A stretch of 64,000 nucleotides of DNA. Source: a virus. Taxonomy: Duplodnaviria > Caudoviricetes. The stretch spans positions 32,001-96,000 of IMG/VR virus record IMGVR_UViG_3300030330_006573. The stretch is one strand, 5' to 3'. A program made the translations under genes and the position numbers. Shown one piece after another: positions 14,295 to 41,800 of the stretch. Under the pieces are notes generated by a model. It was given only the letters and a program-made list of their open reading frames with translations. It was not told the DNA's origin and ran no database searches. Numbering within the stretch: position 1 is the stretch's first letter; each line of letters begins with the position of its first letter.

Positions 14295-14301
14295 AATAAT
14301 C

Positions 14302-14976: not shown

Positions 14977-15014
14977 AAGAAATTAAACATTAAACAAAGA
15001 AAGTTTTAAATACA

Positions 15015-19226: not shown

Positions 19227-19287
19227 ACCTTTACTTATAGTACACTTTAAAAAAACTATTTCAATAAAATAAGTGTATATTATTTAT

Positions 19288-21274: not shown

Positions 21275-21278
21275 TTTT

Positions 21279-21326
21279 AAAAAATATTAAAAAAATATTC
21301 ACATTATTGACTCTTATCTGTAATTT
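21279..21326 (+). promoter_or_regulatory. Promoter of tail tube gene (A-tract, TTCACAT-N14-TGTAATTT)
   Basis: Intergenic; duplicate of element at 13487-13536. Confidence 0.6.
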
Positions 21327-21371
21327 AAAGTAAACAAACACCATTCTATTTAATTCTAACAAACCAAAGTC

Positions 21372-23074: not shown

Positions 23075-26000
23075 ATGCCAATCAGAGTTCAAACAGTTCA
23101 AACAGGACTAGAGAAGTCAATAAGAAACGCCGTTAAGAAGGTTAATGCTACTGGCGGTCTCTCTGTAAATATCAATGATAGGCAATTTACAAGACCTTTA
23201 GGTAAAATCACTGGCTCTGTCAGCGAATTTAATAAATCACTAGAAGCATCTAATGCTCGTGTTTTAGCTTTCGGAGCTTCAGTAGGAATAATACAAAGTG
23301 TTCAAAAAGCATTTGCTGGCTTAATTAGAGAAACTATAAATGTAGAAAAGAAGCTTGCTGACATAAATGTCGTTATGGGAATAACGAATCAGGAGCTAAA
23401 TAAATTTGGAGATGGGTTATTTAAGGTAGCTAGAAATACCGCACAAAGCTTTAATACAGTAGCTGTAGCTGCAACTGAATTAGCTAGGCAAGGTCTGTCA
23501 ATGGAAGAGACCTTGAAAAGGACAAATGACGCTCTTATCTTAACAAGGCTGACTGGACTTGATGCCGCAAATGCAGTAAGTGGTTTAACTGCTGCATTGA
23601 ACACATTTAATAAAGCTGGACTTGATTCAACCAAGATCTTGAGTAAAATGGCTGCTGTTGACGTTCAGTTTGCTGTTAGTACAGAAGACTTGATCGATGC
23701 TGTTTCTAGAGCTGGTGCTGTAGCCCAAGATGCAGGTGTTAGCTTTGACGAATTGCTAGGTGCTGTAACTGCAGCTCAGCAGCAGACGGCAAGAGGTGGT
23801 AAGGTAATAGGTAATAGTTTTAAAACTATCTTTACTAGGGTACAAAGAGGTAGTACCATAAAAAGGCTAGAAGAGCTTGGTATTGCAGTTAGAGATGTAA
23901 GGGGGCAAACTTTGCCAGCCATTCAAATTTTAACTAATTTATCAAAAACTTACGAAACTCTTGCAGATACCACAAAGGCTGCAGTTGCAGAACAGGTTGG
24001 TGGTGTTTTCCAAATAAACATTTTAAAAGCTGCAATTAAAGATTTGGGAGAGCAGAACAGTATACTTACAAGAGCTACAAGAATATCTAGCCAAGCTACA
24101 GATGAAGCGATAAAAAAGAATGAGTTACTAAATAAAACTTTATCAGCATTAACTTCTCAAGCCGCAACTAGTATACAGGAATTTGCTGCAACAGTTGGAG
24201 GTTTAGCATTTGAGGACAATTTAAGAGCTTACTTATCTTCTTTCCAAACTTTTGTAAATTTCTTAAATGATGGATTAAAGCAAGGAGAAGGATTTGGTTC
24301 TGATTTAGGTAGGGGTTTAATAAAAGGATTTGGAAATGTTATTTCTGGTCCAGGAATGGTTTTGGCGATAGGAATATTAGGAAAACTTTTATTTAAAACT
24401 TTTGCATTTTTAGGCGGATCAGTAAAGGAATTGCTTGGAATAGTTTCAGCTACAAAAACTCAAAGAGATATTCAAAAAACTATCGTTGGAGTTTTAGCGG
24501 AGAATTCAGCATTACAAAAGAAAATATTATCGCAAGAAGGAAATAGAGCAGCTCAAGAAAGAACAATACTTAGTATTTTACAGGCTCAAGCAAAAGAGCA
24601 AGCAAGAATAGCTGCGTCTGCAGCTGCGATAGCTCCAGCCGTAATGAGATCTGGATACAATGCACAATTAAGAAGGAGGAGTGCTGGACATATACCTAAC
24701 TATGTATCTGGCTCAGAGGCCAAGGCAGAAAAGGCAGGAGCCAGGTCTGGAGGATACTCTCCAGGTTCTGTAAAATCAATGAATATGCCTGGTCAGGGTA
24801 GAGTTGTATACAATTCTGCAGAAAAAGTTAAAAGTTTTCCTGGAATGGTACAGCCAGCAATAATGCCACCACCAAGAAGTAGGGCTGGGAAAAATTACCA
24901 AAAGGCATTTGCAAAAACTCATGGATTCAATCCTTATGCGAGTGGAGGATTCGTTCCTAATTTCGCAAGAAGAGTTTACTCTGGAGAAAGTCCGACCAAT
25001 ATAGCTAGAGCATTAATTCATGGAAAATCAACCGCAATGAATTTAAATGTTGGCGGAGGCAGAAGATTCAAAGATACATTTCATTCTTTTGGTCCAGCTA
25101 TGGCAACTGGAACTGAAATGAATGCCATAAGAGAAAGGATTTATAAACAATTTATTCAAAATAAAGGGAGCGACTTTAGAAATCAAGTAAATGATTCCCT
25201 GAGGCGTCTTGGCGGAGGTCCGAAAGAATGGGGGAATAGGGATGGTGATTTAATTTTTGGAATGGTATCTCAATTAAACTCTGCAAGAAAATCATCTAGA
25301 AAACTAGAACTTCCATATTCAAAAGGCTTTGTTCCAAATTTTGGAATGAGGTTAAATGCTAATAAGATCAAAAGTATAGTTCAAGGAAAAATACATTCTG
25401 ATAAGTTCGATGGAACTATAGGAATGTCAGAGCTAGATAAAATCATAACGAATGGACTATTTAAATCCATAAAATATCGACCTAAATCAGGAGATATTCA
25501 AGATCTTATATTTACAGGAGCAAGACATGGTGTGCATGCTCACAAAAAAGGAGCCAAACCACCAAAAGGATTTTCTTCTTGGGCTGACTTTGATAAAAAT
25601 TCACCACTAGGAAAATCTAGGGTAGTGCATGCTTCTTCAGCTGGTCAAGGAGCTGGGGGATACAGGAGATTGTATCTTGATAGAATTGATAGCTTAGTTT
25701 CGCAGGGAAAGCATTTAAAGGTTGATCCGAATATGGCAAACTTTGGATTCGTTCCAAATTATTCAGCTTTTCATTACGATAAGAATTTTCCTCTCTCAAT
25801 GCCACAAACAGGGGATCGAATAACATTCTTAAAAGCTTTAGAATTTATGCCTGAGCATAAATTGGCACAAGCCATGGATATGTTCCTAAGCAACACACAA
25901 GCTTTGGATATGAAAGGATCTTATCCAGGAATGCCAATAAAAGATTTTAAAAAGCATTTCGGCGGAAGTCTTAATTTAGACATGGGGATAGATTATTTAA

Positions 26001-29000
26001 GCGAAAAAAGAAAAAAAGAAATATTAAAGAATCCTGATGTAATGAAGTCTTTCTTTAGATATCTTACTGGAAAATCTTCGTCAATTGGAATAGAGGCTGC
26101 ATTGACGGGAGATGAGAGAAAACATTTCATGTCTAAATATGGAATGATTCCAAGAATGAAAAGTATTGATGATGGCCTTATTCCTGGGCAAAAAAAGAAA
26201 GATAGATTGAGTTTAATAAGAGAAGACTTTTTGAGGGCAGGAGAAGGTCCAGAAGGAGGAAAAAAAGGATCGGTAAGAGGTTATATTCAAGAAGCTTTTA
26301 AACAATCGAGGGGAAGCAAAAACTTCAACAAGCTTCTTGCTCAAAATCAAGCTATGGCACCTCCGCCCGTTCTTGGATTGCCTTTTAATCCAGACAGAGG
26401 AATTGCAAAAGCAAGACCGATAGGTGGCATTCTGGCTCAAATGTATATGCCGACATCATCATCCTTCAGAGGGGGAGGCGGATTGGGAGGCCCAGGTTCA
26501 TTTGGAGCCTTAAGCGGAAGATTTAGAGGGGATGATGTAATTACTCGCAGAGGTGTTGATGCTGGACTTCGTAATGTTCTTGAGTCATCGAATCGAGTTG
26601 CTGCAATTAGAGGTGGAGGCAGTATTAGGGATCTAATACCAGCAAAAAGAAATCAAATAGATATGGCAGCCATAGAAAGACTTATGGTCGAAGAGAAAAT
26701 GACTGCCACCCAAGCCTTTAGAGCATTGGGGCTTGACAGAGATCCAGCATACCAGTTAAAAGGATTTATTGGCGGACAAAAAATAAAAATACCAAAAACT
26801 GGGCTGGCAGCTCTTCCCACATTAGATAGCCTTCTAAAAATGAGAAGGTTTAGGTCAGGAGGGTTTGTTCCTAATTTCTCAAGACCGATGTCTAAAATAA
26901 GCACCAAAGTTTATGGAGAAAGAAATGATGCTTTAAACAAAGTAAGGTCAGTAGAGTTTATTTCAGATGTTGGAGGTAGGAGATTTACCAATGCAAGAAC
27001 AATAGAGATACCTGACCCAATTAAGCCGTTAGGGGACAAAATGGGATTACAGGTAATAAATGTAAATCCTGCGGATAAAACTTTAAGAGGCAAGGGTTAT
27101 GGAAAAGAATTATATACTTTCATGGCTGATTATGCGAGAAAGAAGGGATACTCTGGTCTTTATGGAGACATGGGAACTTCTCCTTCTGCGATGAGAGTTG
27201 TTGACAGTATAGCTAAAGGCGGAAAATTTAATGTTACTAAGAACAAAGATTTGAATTTAGTTAAAGATGATTTTCTTAGCGAAGGAGCTGCTTTTGCGAG
27301 CGATAGCTGGACTTACAGAATAGCTAACGGCGGACACATACCTAATTTTATTGGAATCAATCCAGCTTTTGCAAACTTTAATAAGATTATGGGCGGAATG
27401 TATTCTGCTAAAAAAGGAAGACATGGAGCTTTTGGAACAGAAGCAAGAAGCAAAATGGTCTTTAGTGAGAATAAGCAAATTAATGATTTAGCTCATATGG
27501 TATTAAAGGGTGAGTTAACTCTAAAGCAGATGACAGCAGCTGTTAGTGCATCTTCTAATGCTATGTTTAAAAATCCAAAAACTAAACAAGCTGGTATGGA
27601 TCTAATAGCAAGCTACTCAAATCTCATGGCTAATCAAAAGTACGCCAAGATGATGCCGCCTGACATGCTAAAATCAAAAGGCTTTATTCCGAACTTCAGC
27701 CTTATGTCTCCAAGAGCTAGTGGAGTTTTATCTAAAAACCCTCAATTTGCAAGTGCTGTAGGAAGTGCTATATCTAGAGAAGCTTCTTATGGTGTTACCC
27801 CAAAAGTCGTAGCCGCCCCATCTTTAAAAAGTCCCACAAACCCAGGGTTAGCTGTAGTCAATAAAGAGCAAGAGGGCGGAAAGCTTGCAAATGCGAGGAA
27901 GCTACATGGAGGACTCAATCCAAGACAAGGCGCTTCAGGCGGATTTATTCCGAATTATGCTCCAATAGATCCGTTAAAACTTTTGTCTATCATGAGTAGG
28001 TCAGAGCAAAACGTACAAAGCCTTGGTCTTAGATCTTTGCAGAATATACAACAGGCAGGAGCACGTAGTATTAATTTGTCTGGATTTTCACTTCCGCCTG
28101 CATTATTACAATCATTAGAGGATGTTCAAAAACAATTTGGGCATACTGCAAAAGCAGCAAATCAAGCAGCAGTTACTACAAAAATTTTAAATGGAACAGT
28201 TCGATCTCTTGCTGACAGAAAAATAGCGACACAAATATTAAGAAATGAAAGAGCTATGGAGTTGTCTAAAGGCGGAGGGGTCGCTGCTCAATTTACTAGA
28301 GGCGGCGTTCTTGATGAAGAGAGGCTAAGAAGAGACATAAATATAGCAAAGCAAACTGGAGACACTAGAACATTAAAGCAATTACAAGGTCTAGACAAAA
28401 GCTTAACTACTTTCGCAAGTAATAATTTGAGTACTGGTGCTGCAATGGGGCGTGAAGCTGGAAAGCAAATTTCTGCTGGAATTAAAAGCGATGCAAGGAG
28501 AGAAATATTTAAAGATACTAAGGGCTTCTCTAAAAGCCAAATGCAACAAAATTTATCAAAAGAATTTTTGAAAAGTGTAGGTGTTGTTGGTGCTGAAGAC
28601 ATGAACAAAAAGCAAGCCCAACAAGCTATGTCTTCATTTTTTAAAGCTGGTGGTGTAGATGCTAGAAATACATTTAGCTCTTTTGCTCAACAACAAGGAG
28701 TGAAATCCTCGGTTTCTTCTTTGGCAAAAGGAGGATTAGCTTCTGGCGAATTAAGGTCTTTAACTGGAGGAAATAATGCATCAAGATTTATTAGGGCAAT
28801 GAACCTGATAGAGCGAGGGGTAGCTGGAGGAGCCTCACAGAGATCAATAAAAGCAGCTGAACGATTAGCATTAAGAGAAGCAGCTAAAGCAACTGAAGGC
28901 AGAGGCGCACAAGCCACACAAAGATTGAATGCAAGCATAAATCAATTAGTTGATGAACAAAAAAGACAAAATCAAGCTGCATTGCAAGAAAGAAAAACTA

Positions 29001-32000
29001 AAAATTTAGAAGCAAGAAGGAATACAGCTCAGCAGCAGGGTAGATTTATGTCTAGTGCTTTTCTCTCAGGAAGAATGGGAGAAAGGGGTGGAGGAACTGG
29101 AGGGTTTGGATCAAGGATGGCGAATTTGGGTGGTAGATTTATGGGAGGTGCTAGCTCAAGTCTAACAAATTTCGCTTCAAGCATGAAGGGTTTTGGCGGA
29201 ATGACTGGTATGGCATTATCATTCGGACTACCAATGATTGGAGGAATGGTTGGGCCAACTACTCAAAGGATAGACAGAGCACAGTTTCAAGATGGACAAT
29301 TTAGAATAACCGATCAAGGCGGAAGAGAAAGAGCTGGATCAACATTAATGGGGGCAGGAATAGGCGCTTTATTTGGATTGCCTGGATTAATCGCAGGTGC
29401 AGCTGTAGGGTTTGCAGCTTCTGCATCAAAGATGACACTGTCCATACAAGAAATAATACAGCTTCAAGAAAAGCAATTAAAAATTACAAATAGAAATATT
29501 AATTCAGTTTCGACTCTTACATCTTTAAATGAAAGAAGAGCGGCAGCATTTGCATCAGGAGATCAAAATACAGTAAATCAAATTGATGTAGCAATTAATA
29601 GAGCATTATCTCAAGTTACTGATCCAGATATATTGGGAAAAATTCTAGTAGGTTCTCAAAGTAAGGCTGGGTTAGCAAAGGTGCAAGGATTATTGCAAGA
29701 TAGAATTTCTCAAGATCAAGCAGTTCAAAACTTTGGAGTAAATATTAGTCAAAATAATGCAGCGGGAGCGGCAACTTCCCTTGCTAATTTAATAGATCAA
29801 AGATTAAGGTCTGGAGAAATAACAGGAGGTAGGGATACTGTTCTAAAAACCTTAATGGATATAAGGACTAATCTTGAAAAAAGACAGGCATTAGGAACTG
29901 CAATGGGGATTGATGAACTTAATGAAATAAGGAGAACTTCTGAAGGAAAACAAGGAACAACATTAGCTCAGGGTGCGGCAGGTTTAGCTACTACGGGAAT
30001 AATTGCGACTGGCATAGGCATGATACCTCACCCGCTTGCCAGGGGTTTGACCATGTTTCAAAGGCTCATGACTGGCGCCGCTGTTGGTGTTGGGGCTGGT
30101 TCTTTAGTGAGAGAGGCTGAAACGCAAAGAGCTAAGACGCAGATCGAAAACTTAGGAGAAGATCCTCTTGCAGCAACAGATGCATTGGCAAGACTTAGGG
30201 ATGCAACAATAATTACTGAAAATCAATTTAAAGGTTTATCTGCAGCATTTAATGCTGGAGTTCTTTCTTTTGCCGAGTTAGAACAAACACTATTAAAACA
30301 AATTGAAAACTTCGAAAAGTTTCAGAAAAACCAAGAATCACTAGGTCAACAGACATTTAATCTCGAAAGATCATTTAAGAAAACTATTAAAGAATTAAAA
30401 CAAAGTTCTGAGCTTAGAAAGATAAACGAAGGATCTAGAATAAAAAGAGAATCTTCAATTTTAGATTTTTCTTCGAGATTTAATCCAGATACTCCCCAAC
30501 AAAGATTAGGCTTGGCAAGAAGAAGGTTAAATTTGTTTGATCAAGGCATAGATTTTAGAAGACGAAGCTTTAATGAAGATGAGGGAGCAGCATTATTACA
30601 ATCCACCAAACAAATTGGAAAACAACTGAATTTAACGCCGAATTTGACACTAGGTTTGATCGATACCGTTAGAGAAGGCGGGACTGACGCCTTGCAGAGA
30701 CTAGCTGACCAAAGGCGATTAACTGGGAGCATGGATGTTTTTGGCGGAAAAGACTCTATAGAAGGAAGGAGAAAATTATTTGAAGAACTTCAAGCTAACT
30801 TTAATGACAATACTGCTGCAGCAATGCAGGCAATAGGAGATAAAATTGGAACAGATGATCGAGAGACCATTGATCAATTAAGAGGTATTATTCAGAATGC
30901 TATGAACAACCCAGCTGCTCTAGAAAATATATTGTCGGGAGATGATCTTGGAACAATAAAATTCTCAAAAGAAATAACAGAACAAACCAGACTTCTACTT
31001 CAAGACATTTTAGATGGAACATCGGAAAGAAGGATTTTACTTGAAGCACAAATTTTAGCTGACAGAAAACAAGCCAGACTTTCTGAGGCAACTATTATAG
31101 TTCAAAAAAGGGTTAATGATTTGCTTTCAGAAAGAGCGTCAGCAACTGGGCTTCAAAATTTAAAAGATGCTGGAAAAAATCAAAGAGACAGAGCAGAAGG
31201 AATGAGAAAAATTTCTGGGTTTCAATTTGAAGCAACAGATACATTCAGGGGGTCAAGAACTGAAAAGAAAGAAAGAGGTAGGCAGTTACAATTACAAAAA
31301 CAAATATTTGAAGAAGAGTTAAAAATACAAGAAAGAGAAACAGCAACTAGATTAAAATCTGAAGCGAGAAAGTTATTAAGCGATCAAAAGCTTGTATTTG
31401 CACTAAATAAACTGGGAAATACGATAGAGGAAACAATCAGAAAAGCTACCGATCAACCCGCTACATCTACTACTGCTCCATCAGCAAGCAATAATGTAGT
31501 GACTACTAGTGGACCTGGCACACCAATTACAGCTGGAGCAACTGCGGCAAACAACAGAGTTATAGATCAATTTAACAAAAACATAGCAAAAAATAGAGCA
31601 GAATTGGACTCCTTAGAGAAAAAGCTAGGCACATTAAGAGGAGAGAGGCAAATGGCTCGCACTGGGATGACATTGAAAAGCGCCAATGTCCTTGAACAAA
31701 GAATGGTCAAACGAACACGGGTCCATGACCACACGGGACTCACCATAGATGCGGGCGAAAGTCGAGAGACTGATTTTGAAAGAGCAGAAAGATTGGCAGC
31801 AGCAGTTACAGTGGCATTAGCTCCCGACATGAATTTCACTGGCGGAGTAGATCCAGGACTAACTCAAGCCGCGCAACAGATCCAGGACACTCTTTTAGAA
31901 AGAGAAGATAGGAGGAGAAAATTATTCGAAAGAGGAAAGCATGATAAAGTAAGAGCGCATGATAAAAAATCAGTTGAAGTATTGGAAAAAATCATTAGTG

Positions 32001-34207
32001 GAATGATTGATGCAGCAAACATATCATTACAAAAAAAAGATTCTGAAATAAACGCAGTATCGACAGAAATAACAAATTTAAGTAAATTAATAGATAAAGA
32101 CATAGAAGGAATTCAAAAGGTTAGAAAAAATGTAGTTCAAACTGTAACTAATGTACCAGATGTATTAACAAAATTAAAAGATTTGTCTGGCATTACAATA
32201 GATAGTACCGATCAGGTAATAAATGCGATTAATGCATTAGGATTCTCAGCGACTGACGTAGACAAGCTACAATCTCAAATACATGATTTGAAGGGTAGTG
32301 GAGAATTGACCAAAGATCAATTAAATCTATTATCTCAATTAGAAGAAGCGATAATTAATGGCGCAGATGAAATAAGATCTTTTGCAGAAAAACAAAACTT
32401 TAAAATGTTTACAGATAAATTTGTGAACATTACAAAGAATTTACAATTTTTAGATGAATCCATGGGCACCTTTAGGGGGATGGAAGAGCTAAGAGAAATG
32501 GATACTAGACAGAGCGGGGCAAGCAGAGCTTTCAGGTCGATGCTTGAGCAGGACACTAAGCAAAAAAATCTTGAAACATTAATGGCAGACCCAACTGCCA
32601 CAAGATCGGAAATTGCTTCTGCTAAAATAGCAGCAAGATCTCAGACTATTGGAACAGTTCAACAGAGAGATGAGCTTAAAAAACTTGATCAAGAAAGAGA
32701 TCTTATTTTTAAGCAGGTTGCAGCATTAGGAAGAGACACAAATATAAGCGATGAAAAAAGAAATGAGGGGCTTGAGACTGCAAAGAAAAAACTAGAAGAA
32801 ATTAACGAATCAATGGTTCAAGTTGCTGAAAAAATGACAAGAACTACTCCTAGGGATCAAGGAATTTTTACAGAAATAGGAACAAATCTACCTATGGGTC
32901 TTGAAAAAGGGTTTGCTGATCTACAGTCGGAATCTGAGCAAATATATACAAGGCTTGGGGAGCAGTTGCCTTTCGCACTTAGAAATGGGTTAGTTGACGC
33001 AATGCAAGCGGCATTGGAAGGTGCTGATAACTTAGGTGATACATTAAAAGGAATAGGTATAGGATTCTTACAGATAATACAAAGAGCATTTCTTGAAAGT
33101 GCAGCGAGCAGAATAGTTGGCGTTATGGGTTTGAACTCTGGTGGAATGGTAACTGGAGGTAGCGGAGTCAGAGATGATGTGCCAGCAATGCTTACTGGTG
33201 GAGAATACGTCATAAAGAAAAGTTCCGTAGATAAGTATGGAATGGGATTTATGGATAAGTTGAACAGAGGAATGGTTCCAGGATATGCTGAAGGTGGAGC
33301 GGTTGATATGAATATCGGAGCACCAAGATCAGCTAAAAGAGAGTCTTTTGTTGATAAAAATAAATACGGAAATATAACTAGATACAAAGATCTAGAAAGT
33401 GAAATTGGAATAAATTCAAAACTTACTGGATTTGCTAGAGCTAATGATAGGAAAATACTGGAATATTTTAGGGAGCAAGAAAATCAATTCAGGGAAGACC
33501 TGGCTACAAAAGACCAAGAAAAACAAAGAGCAGAGACCAGGAAGAGAGTAAAAGAACAGCAGAAGAATGCATTAATAGGTGTTGTTGCTGGAATAGCTGG
33601 AGGTGCTTTGTTAAGTAAGGCTGTAGACTTGTATAAAGGAACTGACTTCGCCAAAAGACAGGCAGAAAAAAGAGCTGCAAAACAATTTAATAAACAATTT
33701 AATAGCGGAAAAGGATCATATACGAATAGAAGAGGAAGAACTGGATACGAAATAAGAGGACAAGAAAGAAGGCTTTTAAGGCAAGATATAGATAATTTCA
33801 AGGGTCAAGGAGCTACTGCTTCACAAATGAGGGAGTTTCTAAGTTCTCAGGATGTCCAATTTAGGATGGATAGAATTGGAGTGGATGATTACGAGGTAAC
33901 TCTTAACAGAGGCGGAAGAGTTCCAACAATGCTTACTGGCGGGGAATACATAATGAGCCCGAAAGCAGTAAGGAAGCATGGGTCTGCAATGATGAATAGT
34001 ATAAACAACGGAACCTATGCAGGAGGACAAGGTTCTGGACCTACAGTATCTCATGGAGATGTAAATATTTCTATAAATGTTGATAATAATGGTATGTCAT
34101 CAGAAGGCGGAAATCAATTGAATACAAAGGAATTTTCATCAAAGGTAAAGGCAGCAGTAATGCAGGTAATTAATCAAGAAAAGAGGGTTGGAGGATCATT
34201 AAGGTGA
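23075..34207 (+). CDS. Tape measure protein (3710 aa) with internal cargo-domain array
   Basis: N-terminal TP901-type TMP domain (ELARQGLS...GNSFKTIFTR), hydrophobic Gly/Ala helices, coiled coils, lambda gpH-like C-terminus (INISINVD...VMQVINQEKRVGGSLR); followed by tail tip genes. Confidence 0.9.
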   Translation: MPIRVQTVQTGLEKSIRNAVKKVNATGGLSVNINDRQFTRPLGKITGSVSEFNKSLEASNARVLAFGASVGIIQSVQKAFAGLIRETINVEKKLADINVVMGITNQELNKFGDGLFKVARNTAQSFNTVAVAATELARQGLSMEETLKRTNDALILTRLTGLDAANAVSGLTAALNTFNKAGLDSTKILSKMAAVDVQFAVSTEDLIDAVSRAGAVAQDAGVSFDELLGAVTAAQQQTARGGKVIGNSFKTIFTRVQRGSTIKRLEELGIAVRDVRGQTLPAIQILTNLSKTYETLADTTKAAVAEQVGGVFQINILKAAIKDLGEQNSILTRATRISSQATDEAIKKNELLNKTLSALTSQAATSIQEFAATVGGLAFEDNLRAYLSSFQTFVNFLNDGLKQGEGFGSDLGRGLIKGFGNVISGPGMVLAIGILGKLLFKTFAFLGGSVKELLGIVSATKTQRDIQKTIVGVLAENSALQKKILSQEGNRAAQERTILSILQAQAKEQARIAASAAAIAPAVMRSGYNAQLRRRSAGHIPNYVSGSEAKAEKAGARSGGYSPGSVKSMNMPGQGRVVYNSAEKVKSFPGMVQPAIMPPPRSRAGKNYQKAFAKTHGFNPYASGGFVPNFARRVYSGESPTNIARALIHGKSTAMNLNVGGGRRFKDTFHSFGPAMATGTEMNAIRERIYKQFIQNKGSDFRNQVNDSLRRLGGGPKEWGNRDGDLIFGMVSQLNSARKSSRKLELPYSKGFVPNFGMRLNANKIKSIVQGKIHSDKFDGTIGMSELDKIITNGLFKSIKYRPKSGDIQDLIFTGARHGVHAHKKGAKPPKGFSSWADFDKNSPLGKSRVVHASSAGQGAGGYRRLYLDRIDSLVSQGKHLKVDPNMANFGFVPNYSAFHYDKNFPLSMPQTGDRITFLKALEFMPEHKLAQAMDMFLSNTQALDMKGSYPGMPIKDFKKHFGGSLNLDMGIDYLSEKRKKEILKNPDVMKSFFRYLTGKSSSIGIEAALTGDERKHFMSKYGMIPRMKSIDDGLIPGQKKKDRLSLIREDFLRAGEGPEGGKKGSVRGYIQEAFKQSRGSKNFNKLLAQNQAMAPPPVLGLPFNPDRGIAKARPIGGILAQMYMPTSSSFRGGGGLGGPGSFGALSGRFRGDDVITRRGVDAGLRNVLESSNRVAAIRGGGSIRDLIPAKRNQIDMAAIERLMVEEKMTATQAFRALGLDRDPAYQLKGFIGGQKIKIPKTGLAALPTLDSLLKMRRFRSGGFVPNFSRPMSKISTKVYGERNDALNKVRSVEFISDVGGRRFTNARTIEIPDPIKPLGDKMGLQVINVNPADKTLRGKGYGKELYTFMADYARKKGYSGLYGDMGTSPSAMRVVDSIAKGGKFNVTKNKDLNLVKDDFLSEGAAFASDSWTYRIANGGHIPNFIGINPAFANFNKIMGGMYSAKKGRHGAFGTEARSKMVFSENKQINDLAHMVLKGELTLKQMTAAVSASSNAMFKNPKTKQAGMDLIASYSNLMANQKYAKMMPPDMLKSKGFIPNFSLMSPRASGVLSKNPQFASAVGSAISREASYGVTPKVVAAPSLKSPTNPGLAVVNKEQEGGKLANARKLHGGLNPRQGASGGFIPNYAPIDPLKLLSIMSRSEQNVQSLGLRSLQNIQQAGARSINLSGFSLPPALLQSLEDVQKQFGHTAKAANQAAVTTKILNGTVRSLADRKIATQILRNERAMELSKGGGVAAQFTRGGVLDEERLRRDINIAKQTGDTRTLKQLQGLDKSLTTFASNNLSTGAAMGREAGKQISAGIKSDARREIFKDTKGFSKSQMQQNLSKEFLKSVGVVGAEDMNKKQAQQAMSSFFKAGGVDARNTFSSFAQQQGVKSSVSSLAKGGLASGELRSLTGGNNASRFIRAMNLIERGVAGGASQRSIKAAERLALREAAKATEGRGAQATQRLNASINQLVDEQKRQNQAALQERKTKNLEARRNTAQQQGRFMSSAFLSGRMGERGGGTGGFGSRMANLGGRFMGGASSSLTNFASSMKGFGGMTGMALSFGLPMIGGMVGPTTQRIDRAQFQDGQFRITDQGGRERAGSTLMGAGIGALFGLPGLIAGAAVGFAASASKMTLSIQEIIQLQEKQLKITNRNINSVSTLTSLNERRAAAFASGDQNTVNQIDVAINRALSQVTDPDILGKILVGSQSKAGLAKVQGLLQDRISQDQAVQNFGVNISQNNAAGAATSLANLIDQRLRSGEITGGRDTVLKTLMDIRTNLEKRQALGTAMGIDELNEIRRTSEGKQGTTLAQGAAGLATTGIIATGIGMIPHPLARGLTMFQRLMTGAAVGVGAGSLVREAETQRAKTQIENLGEDPLAATDALARLRDATIITENQFKGLSAAFNAGVLSFAELEQTLLKQIENFEKFQKNQESLGQQTFNLERSFKKTIKELKQSSELRKINEGSRIKRESSILDFSSRFNPDTPQQRLGLARRRLNLFDQGIDFRRRSFNEDEGAALLQSTKQIGKQLNLTPNLTLGLIDTVREGGTDALQRLADQRRLTGSMDVFGGKDSIEGRRKLFEELQANFNDNTAAAMQAIGDKIGTDDRETIDQLRGIIQNAMNNPAALENILSGDDLGTIKFSKEITEQTRLLLQDILDGTSERRILLEAQILADRKQARLSEATIIVQKRVNDLLSERASATGLQNLKDAGKNQRDRAEGMRKISGFQFEATDTFRGSRTEKKERGRQLQLQKQIFEEELKIQERETATRLKSEARKLLSDQKLVFALNKLGNTIEETIRKATDQPATSTTAPSASNNVVTTSGPGTPITAGATAANNRVIDQFNKNIAKNRAELDSLEKKLGTLRGERQMARTGMTLKSANVLEQRMVKRTRVHDHTGLTIDAGESRETDFERAERLAAAVTVALAPDMNFTGGVDPGLTQAAQQIQDTLLEREDRRRKLFERGKHDKVRAHDKKSVEVLEKIISGMIDAANISLQKKDSEINAVSTEITNLSKLIDKDIEGIQKVRKNVVQTVTNVPDVLTKLKDLSGITIDSTDQVINAINALGFSATDVDKLQSQIHDLKGSGELTKDQLNLLSQLEEAIINGADEIRSFAEKQNFKMFTDKFVNITKNLQFLDESMGTFRGMEELREMDTRQSGASRAFRSMLEQDTKQKNLETLMADPTATRSEIASAKIAARSQTIGTVQQRDELKKLDQERDLIFKQVAALGRDTNISDEKRNEGLETAKKKLEEINESMVQVAEKMTRTTPRDQGIFTEIGTNLPMGLEKGFADLQSESEQIYTRLGEQLPFALRNGLVDAMQAALEGADNLGDTLKGIGIGFLQIIQRAFLESAASRIVGVMGLNSGGMVTGGSGVRDDVPAMLTGGEYVIKKSSVDKYGMGFMDKLNRGMVPGYAEGGAVDMNIGAPRSAKRESFVDKNKYGNITRYKDLESEIGINSKLTGFARANDRKILEYFREQENQFREDLATKDQEKQRAETRKRVKEQQKNALIGVVAGIAGGALLSKAVDLYKGTDFAKRQAEKRAAKQFNKQFNSGKGSYTNRRGRTGYEIRGQERRLLRQDIDNFKGQGATASQMREFLSSQDVQFRMDRIGVDDYEVTLNRGGRVPTMLTGGEYIMSPKAVRKHGSAMMNSINNGTYAGGQGSGPTVSHGDVNISINVDNNGMSSEGGNQLNTKEFSSKVKAAVMQVINQEKRVGGSLR
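24680..27958 (+). repeat. Eight dispersed in-frame copies of xxG[FH][VI]PN[FY] motif within TMP
   Basis: SAGHIPNY 24680, SGGFVPNF 24941, SKGFVPNF 25319, NFGFVPNY 25739, SGGFVPNF 26855, NGGHIPNF 27326, SKGFIPNF 27674, SGGFIPNY 27935. Confidence 0.92.
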
Positions 34208-35038: not shown

Positions 35039-35799
35039 GCAAGTATGTAAAATATAACGAATGTGAGGTAAAGATAAATGACGAAAACGTTTTTGCCTTA
35101 AATGCATCGCTTTCAGCAAGATCTAATTCTGATGCTAATATTCTTTATGGGGGAGCTGTAGATTCATACTCTTCAGCCGTAGAAAGCCAAGCAGAGGTAT
35201 CTTTCGAGTATTATATTACTGGTGAGATAGATAATATTAGAACATTAACGGGCGACATTTCTTGTTCTGGAGAGTTTGGAGGTATAAAATTTTCTGGAGC
35301 TTATCTAAATAATTATTCAGTTACAATAAGGCCATACTTGCCTATATCATTTAATGCATCTTTCGCCATTTTTAGTGGATATCAAGACACTCTTTCAACA
35401 GGTTCTTTTACTTCTGATTCACTAGAGCTTGCAAATGGAGCGCATACCTCGTTGACAAACATAACAAGTTCAAATGTAGGAATGGACAACCCTCAAGAGA
35501 TTAACTACTCGATAAATTGCCTTAGGCAAGGGAACTATGTTATAGGCGAAGAGTTTCCTCAAGATGTGAGGTTTGGAAGTGTAGAAAAAAAACTATCACT
35601 AAAAGGAGAGGATATCGGGCCTTTGATAAATTTTTCTGGAAAAGATTTTGCAAAAATAAGCATACAGCCAAGAACACACAATAACACATCAAGAGGTCAG
35701 TTAATTGAGTGCGAAGGAATAATTAACTCTCAATCATTGAATGTTTCTAAAAATGGAATGGTTAATGGAGATATTGAAATAATCGAAAGGGTTAGATAG
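35035..35799 (+). CDS. Minor tail protein, tube-fold-like
   Basis: Beta-rich; AYLNNYSVTI similar to GYLSDYTIEA in the tube; position after TMP. Confidence 0.5.
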   Translation: MSKYVKYNECEVKINDENVFALNASLSARSNSDANILYGGAVDSYSSAVESQAEVSFEYYITGEIDNIRTLTGDISCSGEFGGIKFSGAYLNNYSVTIRPYLPISFNASFAIFSGYQDTLSTGSFTSDSLELANGAHTSLTNITSSNVGMDNPQEINYSINCLRQGNYVIGEEFPQDVRFGSVEKKLSLKGEDIGPLINFSGKDFAKISIQPRTHNNTSRGQLIECEGIINSQSLNVSKNGMVNGDIEIIERVR

Positions 35800-36779
35800 T
35801 GAGTTGTAATTACACATTCAATAGCGGTAATTTTCATAATCTAGAAAAGGATTATTATAGTGAGGTTACAAATGCTGGTGGAGGAAAATATAATACTTAT
35901 GCAGACTTTGTTTCGGGATCAAAATCAGATGGAGTTTTAAGTGATTTTGAATATGAAACTCCTTTTAATTTTGTTCCTTCTTATGGATCTTCAGTAAGTA
36001 TAAATTTCATAAGCGAAATTATGGAATACGGAGATGGCTATGTAAGAAATGTGCCAAGGGGTCTAAATAGAATTTTGTTTTCAATGTCATTAGATTTTAA
36101 CGATAGATCAAATGACGAATCTGAAAATATTGTAGATTATATTTCTGAAAGGAAGGGGTCTAATAAATTTCCTTTTCAAATAAAACCAAAATCAAACTAC
36201 TCATCAAGCGAAAGTTATAAATCATTATATTCATTAAAACCTTATTTTGTTCAAGAATTTTTATGTCAACAAGCTCCAATTAATATTGTTTATACAGATA
36301 ACAACTCAATTAGTTTAGATTTTTTAAACGATGAATTTTCGGCATTAAATATAAAAAGTATTTTATATGTAGAATCAATGCCTGCGGAAGAAAAAAGTAT
36401 AATAGATGAGTATAGACAAAAATATGTTTTAGATATAGAACCGTCTGTTTCTTTATCTAGAGATATATCCTTGCGAAATCAATCTTTTCAAAATAATCAA
36501 TCAAAATCTTTTTTTGCTCCAGATGGAGAGAATATAAGAAAAGAAGCTTTAAGATTAAATTTTGAAAAAATAGATGATACTAAGTTATTAAAGCTTTTAT
36601 CATTTTTTATACATAAGCAAGCGGTTGAATCTTTTACTTTTACAGTCAAAAAACCTTCAGAGAGAACGGCGGAATTTATGTGTGACGCAATAGAACACAC
36701 CTATCTTTATAAAGGTGTCCACAGTCTCTCAGTCTCAATATATGAAGTCCCAGTTAAAAAGAGGTTTATTAAATGTTAA
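35799..36779 (+). CDS. Distal tail protein, lambda gpM-like (apparently tandem domains)
   Basis: PSYGSSV...YGDGYVRNVPRGLN...LDFNDR...FPF gpM-like motif; weaker second copy (PSVS...DGEN...LNFEKI...SFTF); GTG start. Confidence 0.65.
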   Translation: MSCNYTFNSGNFHNLEKDYYSEVTNAGGGKYNTYADFVSGSKSDGVLSDFEYETPFNFVPSYGSSVSINFISEIMEYGDGYVRNVPRGLNRILFSMSLDFNDRSNDESENIVDYISERKGSNKFPFQIKPKSNYSSSESYKSLYSLKPYFVQEFLCQQAPINIVYTDNNSISLDFLNDEFSALNIKSILYVESMPAEEKSIIDEYRQKYVLDIEPSVSLSRDISLRNQSFQNNQSKSFFAPDGENIRKEALRLNFEKIDDTKLLKLLSFFIHKQAVESFTFTVKKPSERTAEFMCDAIEHTYLYKGVHSLSVSIYEVPVKKRFIKC

Positions 36780-36807
36780 TTTTTCTTAATTAATTTATTA
36801 TAGTAGG

Positions 36808-37716
36808 GTGAGCTTTCAAAAAACAGAATGTATAAATAAGGAGTTGTTTTCTCAAAATTCTTCAGAGGAAATAGTGCTTTTTGAAATATCGAATATTGCA
36901 AACACATCTGATATAATAAGGTTTCATGGAGGCTCAAATGCGATAAAGGATTCGTTAGTCTTTGATTCATTGGAATATTTTTTTATACCAAATAGCATTG
37001 AGGGCTTAGAAGACAGAAATGACGGCTCTCTAGCTAGGCCAACATTAGATCTAATAAATATTGATGGATTCTTTAGCAAGTATATAATTGACAAAGATGA
37101 TCTAATAGGAGCAGACGTTAAAATAATAAGAACCTTTTTAAGGTTTTTAGATGCGGTTAATTTTTTAAACTACTCTTCTGATACTGAATTTTGGAATCAA
37201 ATGGGAGTAAACCCTGACCCAAATTCAAAACTAAAAGATCAAATTTTTATAATAAATCAAAAAATTACTGAAAATAAAAATTTAATTAAATATGAGTTGT
37301 CAAGCCCTTTAGATCTTGAAAATGTAAGTATTCCAAAAAGGCAAATTATAAATAATTATTGTGCATGGAAGTATAGAGGCAAAGGTTGCTTTTACTCTGG
37401 TGACCCAAAGGCAGATTCTAACAATGCCGTATTTACTGGAACTTTAAATAATAGGGGAGAATGGGTCGAAGGCATATCTTATTCAAAGAATGATTTTGTA
37501 TTTGTCTCTATAAAAGATGGAAATAAGACTAGGAAAGTGTTTTATGTTTGCATAACCGCTAACACTTCTGACGGAGATAATAAGCCAACTGTTAATTCAA
37601 AAGTTTGGGCTCAAGACTCTTGCTCTAAAAGCTTAAAGGGTTGCAAGCTTAGGTATACTGGAGAGAAAAACGATCACTTACCATTTGGTGGATTTCCAGG
37701 GAGTAGACTTTTTTAA
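36808..37716 (+). CDS. Minor tail protein L (lambda gpL-like, Fe-S cluster cysteines)
   Basis: RTFLRFLD, PKRQIINNYCAWKYRGKGCFY, DSCSKSLKGCKLR, LPFGGFPG. Confidence 0.9.
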   Translation: MSFQKTECINKELFSQNSSEEIVLFEISNIANTSDIIRFHGGSNAIKDSLVFDSLEYFFIPNSIEGLEDRNDGSLARPTLDLINIDGFFSKYIIDKDDLIGADVKIIRTFLRFLDAVNFLNYSSDTEFWNQMGVNPDPNSKLKDQIFIINQKITENKNLIKYELSSPLDLENVSIPKRQIINNYCAWKYRGKGCFYSGDPKADSNNAVFTGTLNNRGEWVEGISYSKNDFVFVSIKDGNKTRKVFYVCITANTSDGDNKPTVNSKVWAQDSCSKSLKGCKLRYTGEKNDHLPFGGFPGSRLF

Positions 37717-38099
37717 TGAAAAAAGAAATAGAAAGTATATGCAAAGAAGAGTCGCATAAAGAATCTTGTGGCTTTATACTAATGAGCGGAGATAAATTTG
37801 AAATTGTAAAATGTAATAATGTATCAACACATCCAGAATCGTCTTTTGAGATAAGTTATAAAGATTTAACAAAATATTTAATGAATCAAAAAATGGTAGC
37901 AATTTTTCATTCTCACATAAATACTGATGAGAAATTTTCGGAAAAAGATGTTAAAATATCAGAGGAATTAATGTTTCCATTTTGGGTATATAGCTCAAAA
38001 ACAAAAAAACATAATGTATATATTCCCAAAAATTTACATAACAAGAAAAACATAAAAAACTTTTGTAAAAAAGTACGCACTTACAAGTGTAATATTTAA
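37716..38099 (+). CDS. Tail assembly protein K-like, JAB/MPN metalloprotease domain only
   Basis: ESCGFI, FHSH, FSEKD (E...HxH...SxxD); ends without NlpC/P60 domain. Confidence 0.85.
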   Translation: MKKEIESICKEESHKESCGFILMSGDKFEIVKCNNVSTHPESSFEISYKDLTKYLMNQKMVAIFHSHINTDEKFSEKDVKISEELMFPFWVYSSKTKKHNVYIPKNLHNKKNIKNFCKKVRTYKCNI

Positions 38100-38111
38100 A
38101 GGGATAAGGTT

Positions 38112-38843
38112 ATGATAAAGGTATTTTTACATGGAAATCTAGGAAGAACTTTTGGAAGAAAGTGGGAGCTTGATGCGGAAACGCCAATAGAAGTATTTAA
38201 AGGCATAGATGCCAATGTAGATGGATTTATTAAATATTTAGCTCAAAAAGATAAAGAGGGAATAGCATACAGAATATTTTTTGATGAAAAGCCTATAAAA
38301 AATAAAGAGCTTGAGATCAATATTACAAAAAAAGAAAAGATGCATGTATTTCCAGTAGTAGCTGGATCTGATACTCAAATGGCCCAAGATATGAGAGCTT
38401 ATGGGGCATATGGAGTAGTTGGTGGATGGGGACTAAATTGGATTGGCGGATGGTTGTCAGGGTTCGATAATGCGTTTGCTCAATTGGGAGGAGCAGCTCT
38501 TAGTTTTATAGGAGATATATCTATGGAAGTAGGGGGAGCGCTTCTGGTACAAGGGTTGATTGGAGCACTTCAGGATGAGCCTGAAGAACCTAAGACTCCA
38601 GATGCTGCAAAAGGATTGGAATCAACAACATCTTTCACTTTTTCAAATCCAGCAAATAATGTTATTCAGGGAGCTAGAGTTCCAATAGGATACGGAAGGT
38701 TGAGGGTGGGGAGCCATGTTATATCATCATCTGTACTTAATACAAGACTGGTTAATTTTAATAAGATTGAAGTAGAGAAAAATACATCAACAACCCCAGG
38801 AGCACCAGATGAGGTAGCTGCGTTAGTAGTAGATAATACTTAA
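38112..38843 (+). CDS. Tail assembly protein I-like (ubiquitin-like N-terminus)
   Basis: VFLHGNLGRTFG, HVFPVVAG, Gly-rich hydrophobic segment, QGARVPIGYGRLRVGSHVIS. Confidence 0.88.
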   Translation: MIKVFLHGNLGRTFGRKWELDAETPIEVFKGIDANVDGFIKYLAQKDKEGIAYRIFFDEKPIKNKELEINITKKEKMHVFPVVAGSDTQMAQDMRAYGAYGVVGGWGLNWIGGWLSGFDNAFAQLGGAALSFIGDISMEVGGALLVQGLIGALQDEPEEPKTPDAAKGLESTTSFTFSNPANNVIQGARVPIGYGRLRVGSHVISSSVLNTRLVNFNKIEVEKNTSTTPGAPDEVAALVVDNT

Positions 38844-38846
38844 GAT

Positions 38847-41800
38847 ATGCCAGTTCAAATAAATGCTCATTCAAGCGGGATTACTCCAAGAATATTTTTT
38901 AGAGATGTAACTGGGGTATATTCTCCGTTACTAATAGACAAAGAAAAACTTGAGTCAAACTCTTTCTTTAAAGTAGTTGATTTAGTTTCAGAGGGTCCTA
39001 TAGAGGGGTTTGTAGATTATACTGGAAAACTCGTTTCTGGAACAGAAATATTAAAAGGCATTTATATAAATGACGTGCCAGTTATGACCACTGATCGTGG
39101 GGTTAATGATGGTCAGTTTAACTATAGAAATATATCTGTAGCATACAAAAATGGACTTAGCGGTCAATCTGGATTTTATACTGGTCAAACAGATAATTTT
39201 TATTGGCTTGAAGATTTTTCTTACACATCTAAGTCTCTATCAAAAGGGCAAGAATTATTTAATGCAAAAAGACTTGAGTCCACAACTGTTAATAAGTTTT
39301 ATATAGGCAATCACTCTGTTCTCGATGAAGATGTGGATTGGCTGGGTTTAACAGTTGGGATAAACTCTTGCTATTCCATAACTGATGACGGTTCTCAAAC
39401 TGGTAATGTAGGAAAGTTGCATATATGGGGAGACTTTACTGGAGTAACCCACAGAAGTCTTGAAGAAAGAACCGTAATTCCAGTACCAGACGACAGCATC
39501 AACGATCATAATGTTTTTGTTAGTGTTTCTGGGTTGGCTAATAATAAATACAGAGAAGATATCTTTTTAAAACTTAAAGATCTAGACGGCAAAAGGCCCA
39601 GAAAAATATATATAGAAAACTTAACAGAAGAAAGAGAAAACTTTAGGAACCATTTTTCAGCTAGTTTTGATGGCGTAACTGAGATTGTAGATTCAAATCT
39701 ATCTTACCCTAATTCAGCATATATAGGAATGGTACTTTCTGCGGAAAACTTAGGATCAATACCTACTAGAACATTTGATTTAAAATTAAAAAAAGTAAAA
39801 GTTCCTTCTAATTACGAGGACTTAGGAGAAGGTCCAGATGGGCCAATAAGAGAGAATAGACATGTAGGTACATGGAATGGTACATTTAAGAGTGAGCTAG
39901 AGTGGACAGATAATCCAGCATGGATTTTGTATGATTTAATTACAAATGATAGGTATGGACTAGGAGAGCACATAGAGGAAATAAAAATAGACAAATTCCA
40001 ATTGTATAAAATTGCAAAAATATGCGATGAATTGGTGAGCACTTCTAAAGCTGGGCAGTCGCAGAAGTTTGTGCAAGAAAGAAGGTATACTTGCAATCTT
40101 TATTTGGAAAACCAAATGGATGCATACAAAGCTATTAATGAAATAGCTTCTGTTTTTAGAGGCATTGCTTATTTCAACTCTAGTGAAATATTCATTTCTC
40201 AAAACAATTTAAAAGAATCTATATTTTCTTTCACAAATGATAGCGTTAAAGATGGAAGTTTTTCATATGCTGGAGCTGCTAAACAGGCAAGATTTACAGC
40301 AGTCAAAGTTGCATATAAAGACAAGGATGATTCATATTTGCCTAAGTATGAATATGTAGAAGATCCAGAAGGAATAATAAGATATGGCTTAATTGAAAAA
40401 GAACTTACTGCTGTAGGTTGTACCTCTAGGGATCAAGCCTTAAGGTTGGGAAGGTGGGTCTTGTTTACTTCAGCAAGAGAAGAAGAGACTGTTACATTCG
40501 TAACTGATGCAAGTGCTGAATACTTGCAACCAGGAGATGTCTTTACTGTTTCGGATAGTTTAAGAAATGGAATAAAAACTGGCGGAAGAATTAAAAATAT
40601 AGTAAATGACAAAAGTGCAGTAAATGAAAATTTCATATTGCTAGATCAACAACTTGATACTGGAAATTATAATTTTACAAGTATTAGTTTTTTGATACCT
40701 AGTCAAGACTATACAAGCACCTCATCAGACACTGACCAATTCAAGGAGTTTGTACATAGAAACGGAGTAAACATAGGTGCAGCCGACGATGGAGACAGGT
40801 CTTCTTTAGTTTCAATTCCAATCGATTCAGAATCGTCTAGTAATACTAGCTTAAATAATTATATAGAAAATACAAGCTCTGGAGCAAAGATATTAACAGA
40901 TGAGTTAGAAGATTTAATATTAAGAGAGGCTATATCTGGATCATTTATAAACGGATCTGCTGGACACAAAACATTCAATGATTATTTTTTGAATAGTGGA
41001 GTACTAAGGAATATAAGAGATGGCGCTGATAGATATACAAATACAGAAAAAATTAAAGAGGGTTTTGTATATATATTAAATGGTAGTGGAGATGGCGCAG
41101 GATGCTCTACATTACATTCAAAAGATTACTCTTTAATAAGAAAAAGCAAAGAGGAAGATGGGTCTTATAGCATAATAGGTGCGGAATATAGTTCTGGAAA
41201 ATTTGGAGATTCTGATAACCTTTCTACTGTATATACTGAAACTACATTTGATGCAGAACCCACTAATCAATCTAGGACAGCTATTGATGAGCCTGTTACT
41301 ACTGGAAGAAAGACTCCAGAAGATATTATTCCTCAGTTACCTATTTTCGGGTTTCCAGAAGAAAATACTGTAGATCTAATTGTAAGACCTTCGGGTTTTA
41401 TTAATACTCAAGGGCAATCTAGGTCAAAAGTATTTTATTATTTTCACAACACAGAAGAAAATGAGAGATATTATAATCCAGCATTTTCAAGTGATGCAAG
41501 GTATGAAATTAGAGTAAGAGAAGTAGATCCAACTTATTATGGAAATTTATTATCAACTCAAATATCTACAGAAAATGTTTTACAGTCAGGTCAGTATATA
41601 GTATCTGGACTTCAAGACTGCTCATCATATCAAGTTTTGTATGATATACCTGCTGGAGCATCAATAGATAATAAAGCTGAAATTGGAGGAAGGAATAAAA
41701 AACAATTATCTTTATCAAATTATCAAGACGGAGAATTTAGAGATGATGTAAAAGTAGTTAGGTCTAGAATAATGCAGGAAACTGGGTCGGTTGCCCTGAA

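Follow-up and report, generated by a model that had tools for sequence, protein, structure and literature searches.

What is a series of unrelated, domain-sized segments, each set off from the next by the same short peptide, doing inside the tape measure protein (TMP) of a phage? The question arises from a 64,000-nucleotide stretch of DNA, hereafter the window, which comprises bases 32001-96000 of the 179,985-bp virus record IMGVR_UViG_3300030330_006573 of IMG/VR, rated complete by CheckV. The TMP gene of the window (23075..34207, on the plus strand, like all features below whose coordinates are written with two dots) is a single open reading frame (ORF) encoding a protein of 3710 aa, P0001. 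Because its Pfam domain, PHROG families and gene order agree, P0001 is identified from its sequence as the TMP of a large siphovirus whose tail tip is of the lambda type. Between the N-terminal domain and a tape of ~2,080 aa, the protein carries a passenger of 1,091 aa, which an initial annotation described as a motif-delimited array of cargo domains. We find that the array is modular and that its domains are shuffled among relatives, a result that we regard as solid. The best explanation overall, and on balance a probable one, is that the TMP of a marine siphovirus carries exchangeable passenger domains, which would ride in the tail and be expelled from it.

A repeated peptide divides the array

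Eight copies of the strict motif G[FH][VI]PN[FY] are present in P0001, compared with 0.0002 expected from composition in 3710 aa. From the N-terminus, they are GHIPNY (copy 1, aa 538-543, 24686..24703), GFVPNF (copy 2, aa 625-630, 24947..24964), GFVPNF (copy 3, aa 751-756, 25325..25342), GFVPNY (copy 4, aa 891-896, 25745..25762), GFVPNF (copy 5, aa 1263-1268, 26861..26878), GHIPNF (copy 6, aa 1420-1425, 27332..27349), GFIPNF (copy 7, aa 1536-1541, 27680..27697), and GFIPNY (copy 8, aa 1623-1628, 27941..27958). The initial annotation located all eight copies correctly, with residue numbers 2 lower because an "xx" prefix was included in its pattern, and the spacings that it gave (87, 126, 140, 372, 157, 116, and 87 aa) are exact. 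It also suspected that a degenerate copy splits the 372-aa segment. In accordance, GMIPRM (aa 1023-1028, 26141..26158) marks a homology boundary, at which the upstream part (m4a, 17 homologues) and the downstream part (m4b, 6 homologues) separate.

When the entire 179,985-bp genome is translated in six frames, the motif is found in no ORF except that of the TMP. The copy counts in the TMP, the genome, and the protein family rule out an origin by chance. An N-glycosylation sequon is also ruled out, as the residue two positions after the Asn shows no preference for Ser or Thr.

The motifs and the degenerate copy delimit two bookends, m0 and m1, which enclose six variable cassettes (m7, m3, m4a, m4b, m6, and m21). 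BLASTP among these modules, with the motifs trimmed off, yields only matches at E > 1, in agreement with the earlier claim that the segments are mutually unrelated. Bookend m0 has 119 BLASTP matches at ≥70% coverage and 20 invariant columns; because one protein is matched twice, at least 118 of the 119 homologues carry it. Bookend m1 has 75 BLASTP matches, and its cluster contains 89 members. The two bookends are not related to each other, as hhalign aligns nothing beyond 9 columns of the motif.

Modules are exchanged between relatives

A homologue search with aa 530-1640 retrieves 342 giant TMPs of 2,040-6,493 aa, the best 120 of which (P0001 and 119 relatives) are examined here. Nearly all of the 119 relatives bear the motif, in 1-13 copies, the first of which lies directly behind the N-terminal domain. 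Three residues, G, P, and N, never vary among 350 distinct copies. V or I fills position 3, and F or Y fills position 6; position 2 takes F, H, or Y in the strict set, and a relaxed pattern adds L, which is then common too. The surroundings are biased as well: A or S is favoured both two residues ahead of the Gly and immediately behind the motif. The consensus of the junction is [AS]-x-G-[FHL]-[VI]-P-N-[FY].

When the 120 proteins are split at the motif, the resulting 505 inner segments cluster into 89 families. Almost without exception the array opens with family 0 (m0, ~87 aa), and in most proteins it closes with family 1 (m1, 63-87 aa), with variable content in between. The window reads 0-7-3-4-6-21-1, and relatives read, for example, 0-7-6-9-3-4-1, 0-7-7-3-4-11-9-1, 0-22-4-3-6, 0-3-12-6-1, and 0-33-3-43-6-11-44-7-18-45; many TMPs of 2,000-2,500 aa have only 0-2-1 or 0-8-1. 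Thirty-four pairs of families are found in both orders (family 3 precedes family 4 in 5 proteins and follows it in 11), and one family is present twice in each of four proteins.

The boundaries of the homologous blocks coincide with the motif even when no split is imposed. In whole-protein BLASTP, the blocks start and stop at motifs: 46% of the ends of high-scoring segment pairs (4,456 ends, 52 multi-motif TMPs) lie within 5 aa of a motif centre and 64% lie within 10 aa, compared with 5% and 10% at random. The same holds in DNA for m3, which is ~85% identical between the window and the related locus L003 in a block that opens just past the upstream motif and closes at the downstream motif; the DNA flanking the block is unrelated.

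Module identity also disagrees with backbone identity. In relative P0003, m3 is 86% identical to that of the window and the tape is 33% identical, while P0007 and P0010, which have the closest tapes (49%), have m3 modules that are only 56-58% identical. In P0006, m4a is 83% identical and the tape is 31% identical. Because of this disagreement, the sequence comparisons indicate that modules are exchanged between lineages. Identity of the N-terminal domain is 72-82% in close relatives (61% in P0032), compared with 28-50% for the tape. Within the close clade, the length of the array ranges over ~390-2064 aa, or over ~600-2064 aa in those proteins whose array has a recognisable end; in complete close relatives, what follows the array is mostly 2000-2390 aa long. 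Homologous TMPs thus differ in the number, identity, and order of their segments between conserved flanks, with breakpoints at the motif, in line with the swapping of cassettes that the initial annotation envisaged; the segments are clearly not collinear, uniformly diverged pieces of tape helix.

Some relatives have unusual arrays. P0033, P0042, and P0041 have a second internal bookend (an m1 in the middle of the array or a second m0), resembling two joined arrays. The TMP of L001 has identical 11-residue motif contexts in two pairs (aa 878/2061 and 1013/2200), suggestive of internal cassette duplication; self-BLAST of this protein gives no off-diagonal match, and hence detects no internal duplication. 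The homologous TMP of L006 (8424-20098), from an ENA assembly polished with pilon, is annotated as ~20 small ORFs, most likely as a result of frameshift errors rather than a genuinely split gene.

Selection on the peptide and possibly on the DNA

The coincidence of breakpoints and motifs raises the possibility that the motif matters as DNA. The initial annotation offered the consensus GG.TT[CT][GA]TTCC.AA[CT]T as a recombination microhomology. The copies fit this consensus loosely: those with His have CAY at position 2, and the wobble positions of Gly and Pro take all four bases. The microhomology itself has one hint in its favour, as T is the third base of the [VI] codon (24692-24694 in copy 1) in 28 of the 33 copies from the window and L001-L003 (ATT 15/18, GTT 13/15), compared with 41-48% genome-wide and 49-54% before Pro. 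This bias could reflect either a nucleotide-level constraint or a codon-context effect.

A motif that is a DNA recombination signal only, with a peptide that has no function of its own, would be consistent with this bias and with breakpoints at the motif. However, the remaining wobble positions differ between copies (both codons occur for each of Phe, Asn, and Tyr), while the residues G, P, and N are the same in all 350 distinct copies. The shared core is also at most ~12 nt and is poorly conserved across the m3 junction compared between the window and L003. We consider a pure DNA signal very improbable. As these residues are fixed and most of the wobble positions are not, selection on the motif acts mainly at the peptide level, with a hint of added nucleotide-level constraint. 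The recurring coding sequence may still provide in-frame microhomology that eases cassette swaps.

Predicted structures of the modules

We predicted the structures of aa 530-1030 (mean pLDDT, the predicted local distance difference test, 75) and aa 1031-1640 (mean pLDDT 64) by using AlphaFold2, with alignments inspected row by row. Alignment rows were cut at the motifs; one whole-array and several partial MAFFT alignments, in which the shared motif had pulled unrelated fragments into register, were discarded as misaligned. The models consist of compact globular domains rather than tape helix, which bears out the earlier remark that the segments are unlike TMP helical repeats. The domains are divided by stretches with pLDDT<50, and the linkers between modules are rich in Gly, Ser, and Pro. 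Seven of the eight motif copies are positioned within or at the edge of these low-confidence linkers. Copies 1-5 lie inside stretches at residues 1-13, 96-106, 215-241, 361-385, and 226-238 of their respective models, copy 6 lies at the edge of the stretch 391-424, copy 7 lies at the end of the stretch 492-507, and copy 8 has a pLDDT of about 65.

The module that is easiest to interpret is m6 (aa 1269-1419, 26879..27331, pLDDT mostly 86-96), a variable cassette predicted to adopt the GNAT fold. A Foldseek search against the PDB gives 111 matches at E≤1e-3; those listed are almost all GNATs with a probability of 1.00 and include the C-terminal domain of ICL2, EctA, GCN5, and SpeG. The best 50 rows from VIA are all GNATs (Z 8.6-10.1, 98-132 residues aligned, rmsd mostly 2.6-4.5 Å), and the alignments cover model residues 240-390, i.e. 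the whole module. Motif copy 6 begins 2 residues past the last GNAT strand. Motif A, the acetyl-CoA pyrophosphate loop (Q/R)-x-x-G-x-(G/A), reads R-G-K-G-Y-G, and the 14 homologues (49-58% identity) all keep its R, G, G, Y, and G. A profile of m6 against the PDB gives six matches, the best five of which are GNATs aligned on motif A (E 0.13-0.62), and the score against Pfam Acetyltransf_1 is 14.1 bits (E 0.057), below the cut-off of 20.7. Because the Pfam score is sub-threshold, placement in the GNAT superfamily rests on the fold and motif A. By these models, m6 is a GNAT-fold domain with an intact acetyl-CoA loop R-x-x-G-x-G, and a predicted member of this acetyltransferase superfamily.

The variable cassette m3 (aa 757-890, 25343..25744, pLDDT 83-95) is predicted to be a small WYL_2/Sm-like beta-barrel. 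In BFVD it matches a 93-aa phage protein annotated as "WYL domain containing protein" (E 6.8e-4, TMt 0.73, rmsd 3.2 Å, 108 columns). Its nearest ESM Atlas cluster is 58% PF10902 WYL_2 (TM 0.54, 101 residues aligned), and VIA gives Z 4.5-5.6 to the WYL domains of PafBC, CapW, BrxR, and DriD. None of 25 m3 homologues matches any Pfam family at E≤0.01. The model of m3 resembles a WYL_2-like barrel, by structural matches that are modest and to a type of fold, the small barrel, that is common. With m6 and m3, at least two segments resemble stand-alone folded domains, as had been proposed.

The other modules give less definite pictures. Bookends m0 (aa 544-624, 24704..24946, pLDDT 72-84) and m1 (aa 1542-1622, 27698..27940, pLDDT 85-93) are both small alpha+beta domains. 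The variable cassette m7 (aa 631-750, 24965..25324, pLDDT 84-96) is all-helical, and its 15 BLASTP homologues are every one in a TMP; it has no clear structural match, and its best score in a language-model atlas, 0.82, is uninformative. The variable cassette m4a (aa 897-1022, 25763..26140, pLDDT 63-91) is mostly helical; as a homology unit (897-1030), it has its 17 homologues at ≥70% coverage. Structure and language-model searches gave no fold assignment for m7, m4a, m0, or m1, and the 501-residue model of aa 530-1030 as a whole has zero Foldseek matches in the PDB at E≤1e-3. Module m4b (aa 1029-1262, 26159..26860) is largely disordered, with pLDDT<50 over model residues 66-163 of a shallow alignment; its six homologues (homology unit 1031-1268) are weakly conserved, and it has a Gly-rich stretch and a short helical piece. 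The variable cassette m21 (aa 1426-1535, 27350..27679, pLDDT 36-80) has only 2 BLASTP homologues and near-zero alignment depth, and is helical at low confidence. The models of m4b and m21 are uninformative, as their alignments are too shallow.

Cargo or structural part

How would such an array serve the phage? In the explanation that we favour, its domains would sit inside the tail lumen like beads on a string and be expelled with the TMP ahead of the DNA, such that ready-made accessory proteins reach the host envelope or cytoplasm. Injection of the array as cargo is plausible, about as likely as not. A more far-reaching version, which we put forward tentatively, is that a large, uncultured clade of aquatic siphoviruses may use the TMP as an evolvable delivery platform, in which the linker peptide would be both a release or docking signal and an exchange junction, and each phage would inject a Cys-free effector cocktail of its own before the DNA.

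P0001, cargo included, contains 0 Cys in 3710 aa, and 109 of 121 family sequences (the two copies of the window's own included) are also free of Cys, with a mean of 0.005% in homologues. Elsewhere, Cys makes up 1.58% of the other ORFs of the genome and 0.6-3.9% of most neighbouring tail proteins. A composition free of Cys suits proteins that pass an oxidising periplasm or a narrow channel. Among the representatives of the 89 module families, PHROGs recognise eight stand-alone phage families, polynucleotide kinase included, and Pfam recognises only WYL_2, PGDYG, and Acetyltransf_1; the WYL_2 match (E 4.1e-7) belongs to a module family of the relatives other than m3. Sequence matching shows that a minority of the module families is linked to free-standing phage genes.

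Several observations weigh against the explanation that we favour. Because 86 of the 89 representatives have no Pfam family, the label "effector" rests on very few annotated folds. No stand-alone relative of m3 or m6 is detectable by sequence: the m3 profile has 34 matches among 1.84 billion representatives, mostly giant proteins of 2,000-4,800 aa, with eight shorter ones (92-1078 aa) that, judged without inspection, look like fragments, and all 3 short sequence matches of m6 are fragments of TMPs. Because their sequence relatives occur only inside TMPs, m3 and m6 could be TMP-specific structural parts. A GNAT needs cytoplasmic acetyl-CoA, for which the N-proximal part of a siphovirus TMP would have to get as far as the cytoplasm. 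Three copies of ~9 folded domains would have to fit a lumen of ~4 nm. Finally, the low pLDDT at the junctions may be exaggerated in the models, because alignment rows were cut at the motifs.

An alternative is that the array serves structure or assembly. Its domains would then act within the producing cell or the tail, where they might keep the chain soluble or chaperone it in cis, plug the lumen, or serve as spacers; the motif would dock the chain to the tube wall, a chaperone, or the other TMP chains, and nothing would act on the host. Bookends that are near-universal and highly conserved are consistent with such a role, as is the restriction of the motif, and of m3 and m6 by sequence, to TMPs. 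In addition, a G/GT-type chaperone pair is not recognisable among the four ORFs 5' of the TMP (19273-22964) or between the last of them, a 530-aa gene, and the TMP. However, a structural role would not lead one to expect the approximately fivefold variation in array length, the 34 pairs found in both orders, or swaps between lineages at constant tape length, and the conserved acetyl-CoA loop of a GNAT fold has no obvious structural use. We therefore consider a purely structural array unlikely, and exchangeable passengers expelled with the TMP remain the explanation that we prefer.

Candidate roles of the motif

At the peptide level, the motif would act as a signal, for processing or for docking. 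In the former case, the array would be a true polyprotein: a protease of the phage or the host would cut it at each junction, while the tail matures or once the array has been ejected, and so free the domains. The array has a conserved motif of 6-9 residues in the flexible linkers that join its folded domains, which is how viral polyproteins are laid out, with the caveat that the low pLDDT of the linkers comes from rows cut at the motifs. Cleavage is also how lambda gpH is matured. For polyvalent proteins, it has been suggested that proteolysis sets the domains free (PMC5512222). However, Pfam recognises no protease in P0001 or the 89 module representatives, and the motif fits no protease specificity known to us. 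The array also differs from viral polyproteins in its carrier, a virion structural protein of a dsDNA phage. Weighing both sides, we find processing at the motif, and with it a polyprotein, doubtful.

Docking, with the motif as a short linear motif for a partner from the phage or the host, seems to us as uncertain as processing, and an inter-chain or tube-wall contact is rather unlikely. One lead for a docking partner is a periplasmic chaperone of the parvulin/SurA type, which would act as a ratchet and help to pull the TMP, and then the DNA, from the tail. The peptide WEYIPNV is a ligand of micromolar affinity for the P1 domain of Escherichia coli SurA, which has a preference for Ar-X-Ar-X-Pro (PMC11401910). 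Copies of the motif take the similar form Ar-[VI]-P-N-Ar, with exactly Y-I-P-N in some relatives. There is also a phage precedent, at least as cited in PMC5099701: injection by HK97 needs its TMP and the periplasmic peptidyl-prolyl isomerase chaperone FkpA (Cumby et al. 2015). On the other hand, the likeness covers 4-5 residues and is to one of many possible motifs, and nothing in the SurA consensus corresponds to the invariant Gly that opens the motif or to the aromatic residue that follows the Asn. Moreover, the consensus comes from E. coli, and the host of this phage may have different chaperones. A complex prediction of the E. coli SurA P1 domain with m0 and its motif gives a score of 0.00, which, without control runs, counts neither way. 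We consider the chaperone ratchet improbable.

Comparison with known systems

Full-text literature searches, made for the motif and for cargo-carrying, polyvalent, or modular TMPs, turned up no paper that describes this architecture. The array is an unpublished, widespread variant of the theme of polyvalent or cargo-carrying proteins. The nearest concept is that of the polyvalent proteins, giant polypeptides of phages and conjugative elements that are predicted to enter the host with the DNA before gene expression (Iyer, Burroughs, Anand, de Souza, Aravind 2017, PMC5512222). They list GNATs among their domain classes, show fast domain turnover, are thought to be packaged in the head or delivered by a type IV secretion system, and contain a zincin-like peptidase hub in 36% of cases; TMPs are not mentioned in that paper (PMC5512222). 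The array shares with them unrelated domains in one giant chain, a GNAT included, and content that turns over quickly. It differs in that the carrier is a TMP, one linker peptide stands at every junction, and two bookends frame the whole; in addition, Pfam finds no peptidase, the hub being common in polyvalent proteins and not obligatory. With respect to the disparate activities that define polyvalent proteins, the models predict one enzyme fold (GNAT) and one barrel of a ligand- or nucleic-acid-binding type among the modules.

Functional inserts in TMPs have precedents. T5 pb2 is a TMP with a C-terminal peptidase. The TMP of mycobacteriophage TM4 contains an Rpf-like motif (Piuri and Hatfull 2006, as cited in PMC5099701). 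As far as these accounts go, both resemble P0001 in having an insert that is not part of the ruler; theirs is functional and acts at infection. In contrast, their insert is a single cell-wall hydrolase motif or domain, whereas the TMPs described here have up to ~12 exchangeable unrelated domains and a dedicated delimiter.

Sle1-type effectors of actinobacterial contractile injection systems consist of a TMP-derived scaffold in the tube and a variable, experimentally exchangeable functional domain (Nagakubo et al. 2026, PMC13277306). They are similar in that a TMP-related scaffold carries a domain, functional in their case, that differs between relatives. However, theirs is a bacterial contractile system with one C-terminal domain, no repeated delimiter is described, and there is no sequence relationship. 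Hcp rings of the type VI secretion system and the tubes of extracellular contractile injection systems (eCIS), such as the Photorhabdus virulence cassette (PVC), hold small effectors inside a lumen of ~4 nm, so that the cargo is restricted in its size or in how far it can be folded. Those effectors are separate proteins loaded via signal peptides or binding to Hcp, whereas the domains of the array are covalently strung on the ruler.

Organisation of the TMP and its genomic context

The conserved N-terminal domain (aa 1-537, 23075..24685) is the standard TMP domain that the initial annotation recognised. Pfam PF10145 (PhageMin_Tail) matches aa 119-310 with 92.7 bits (gathering cut-off 33.2, E 3.6e-26), and 18 PHROG TMP families match aa 1-540. 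Further PHROG TMP matches are C-terminal, at ~aa 3140-3420, and there is no PHROG match across aa 530-2600. A hydropathy scan places a hydrophobic segment in the N-terminal domain (aa 421-448, 24335-24418) and another in the tape (aa 2088-2118, 29336-29428). The tape region (aa 1629-3340, 27959..33094) is defined by composition and hydropathy: Pro (1.5%) and aromatic residues are scarce, and helix-formers are abundant (48% AELKQR). The C-terminal region (33095..34207) has two VPxMLTGGEY[VI] elements, at aa 3369 and 3616 (33179-33250 and 33920-33990), with a hydrophobic helix (aa 3498-3519) between them. One or two elements of this type are present in 100 of 120 relatives. A motif-like G-x-[VILM]-P-G-[FY] behind the C-terminal VPxMLxxGE was dropped from consideration; it is present in P0001 and in only 4 of 120 proteins.

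The large terminase gene lies upstream of the TMP gene, and a lambda-type tail-tip block (35799..45659), comprising a minor tail protein followed by L-, K-, I-, and J-like proteins, begins two ORFs downstream. The block matches phrog_14, phrog_18 (E 1.9e-58), phrog_30, phrog_32, and phrog_31, the central tail fibre J (E 3.9e-126). The J-like fibre (38847-45659) has 2270 aa, and known J families match only the first ~620 aa. The ORF directly 3' of the TMP (34211-35038) has a sub-threshold match to Phage_tube_2 (E 0.0012), which suggests a tube-like distal tail protein. The four ORFs 5' of the TMP (157, 222, 287, and 530 aa) have zero matches in PHROG and Pfam; the 530-aa gene beside the TMP is kept in relatives, where it encodes 534-584 aa. 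The GC content is 0.44 at 14001-16000, around the putative capsid genes, compared with 0.28-0.39 in most of the window.

Aquatic metagenomes, those of Tara among them, are the source of the relatives, one of which shares a bin with a Flavobacteriales metagenome-assembled genome. This binning suggests a Flavobacteriales host for a marine, uncultured phage. In INPHARED, zero cultured phages match the array; the N-terminal TMP domain alone has matches, at ~25% identity.

Implications

As a natural modular scaffold, the array offers a way to load phage tails with foreign domains. A ruler protein with an insert that is freely resizable from ~400 to 2,000 aa challenges the simple rule that the number of residues sets the length of the tail, and would do so even with domains that turn out to be structural. 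If the array is delivered, it would provide non-contractile phages with a route of protein injection that is independent of the capsid, and would account for TMPs that are far longer than tail length demands. The delimiter peptide would then be a simple sequence rule by which hundreds of early-acting phage proteins could be harvested from metagenomes. If the TMP is indeed such a delivery platform, the ~90 module families found in 120 proteins would constitute a large pool of host-takeover or anti-defence proteins.

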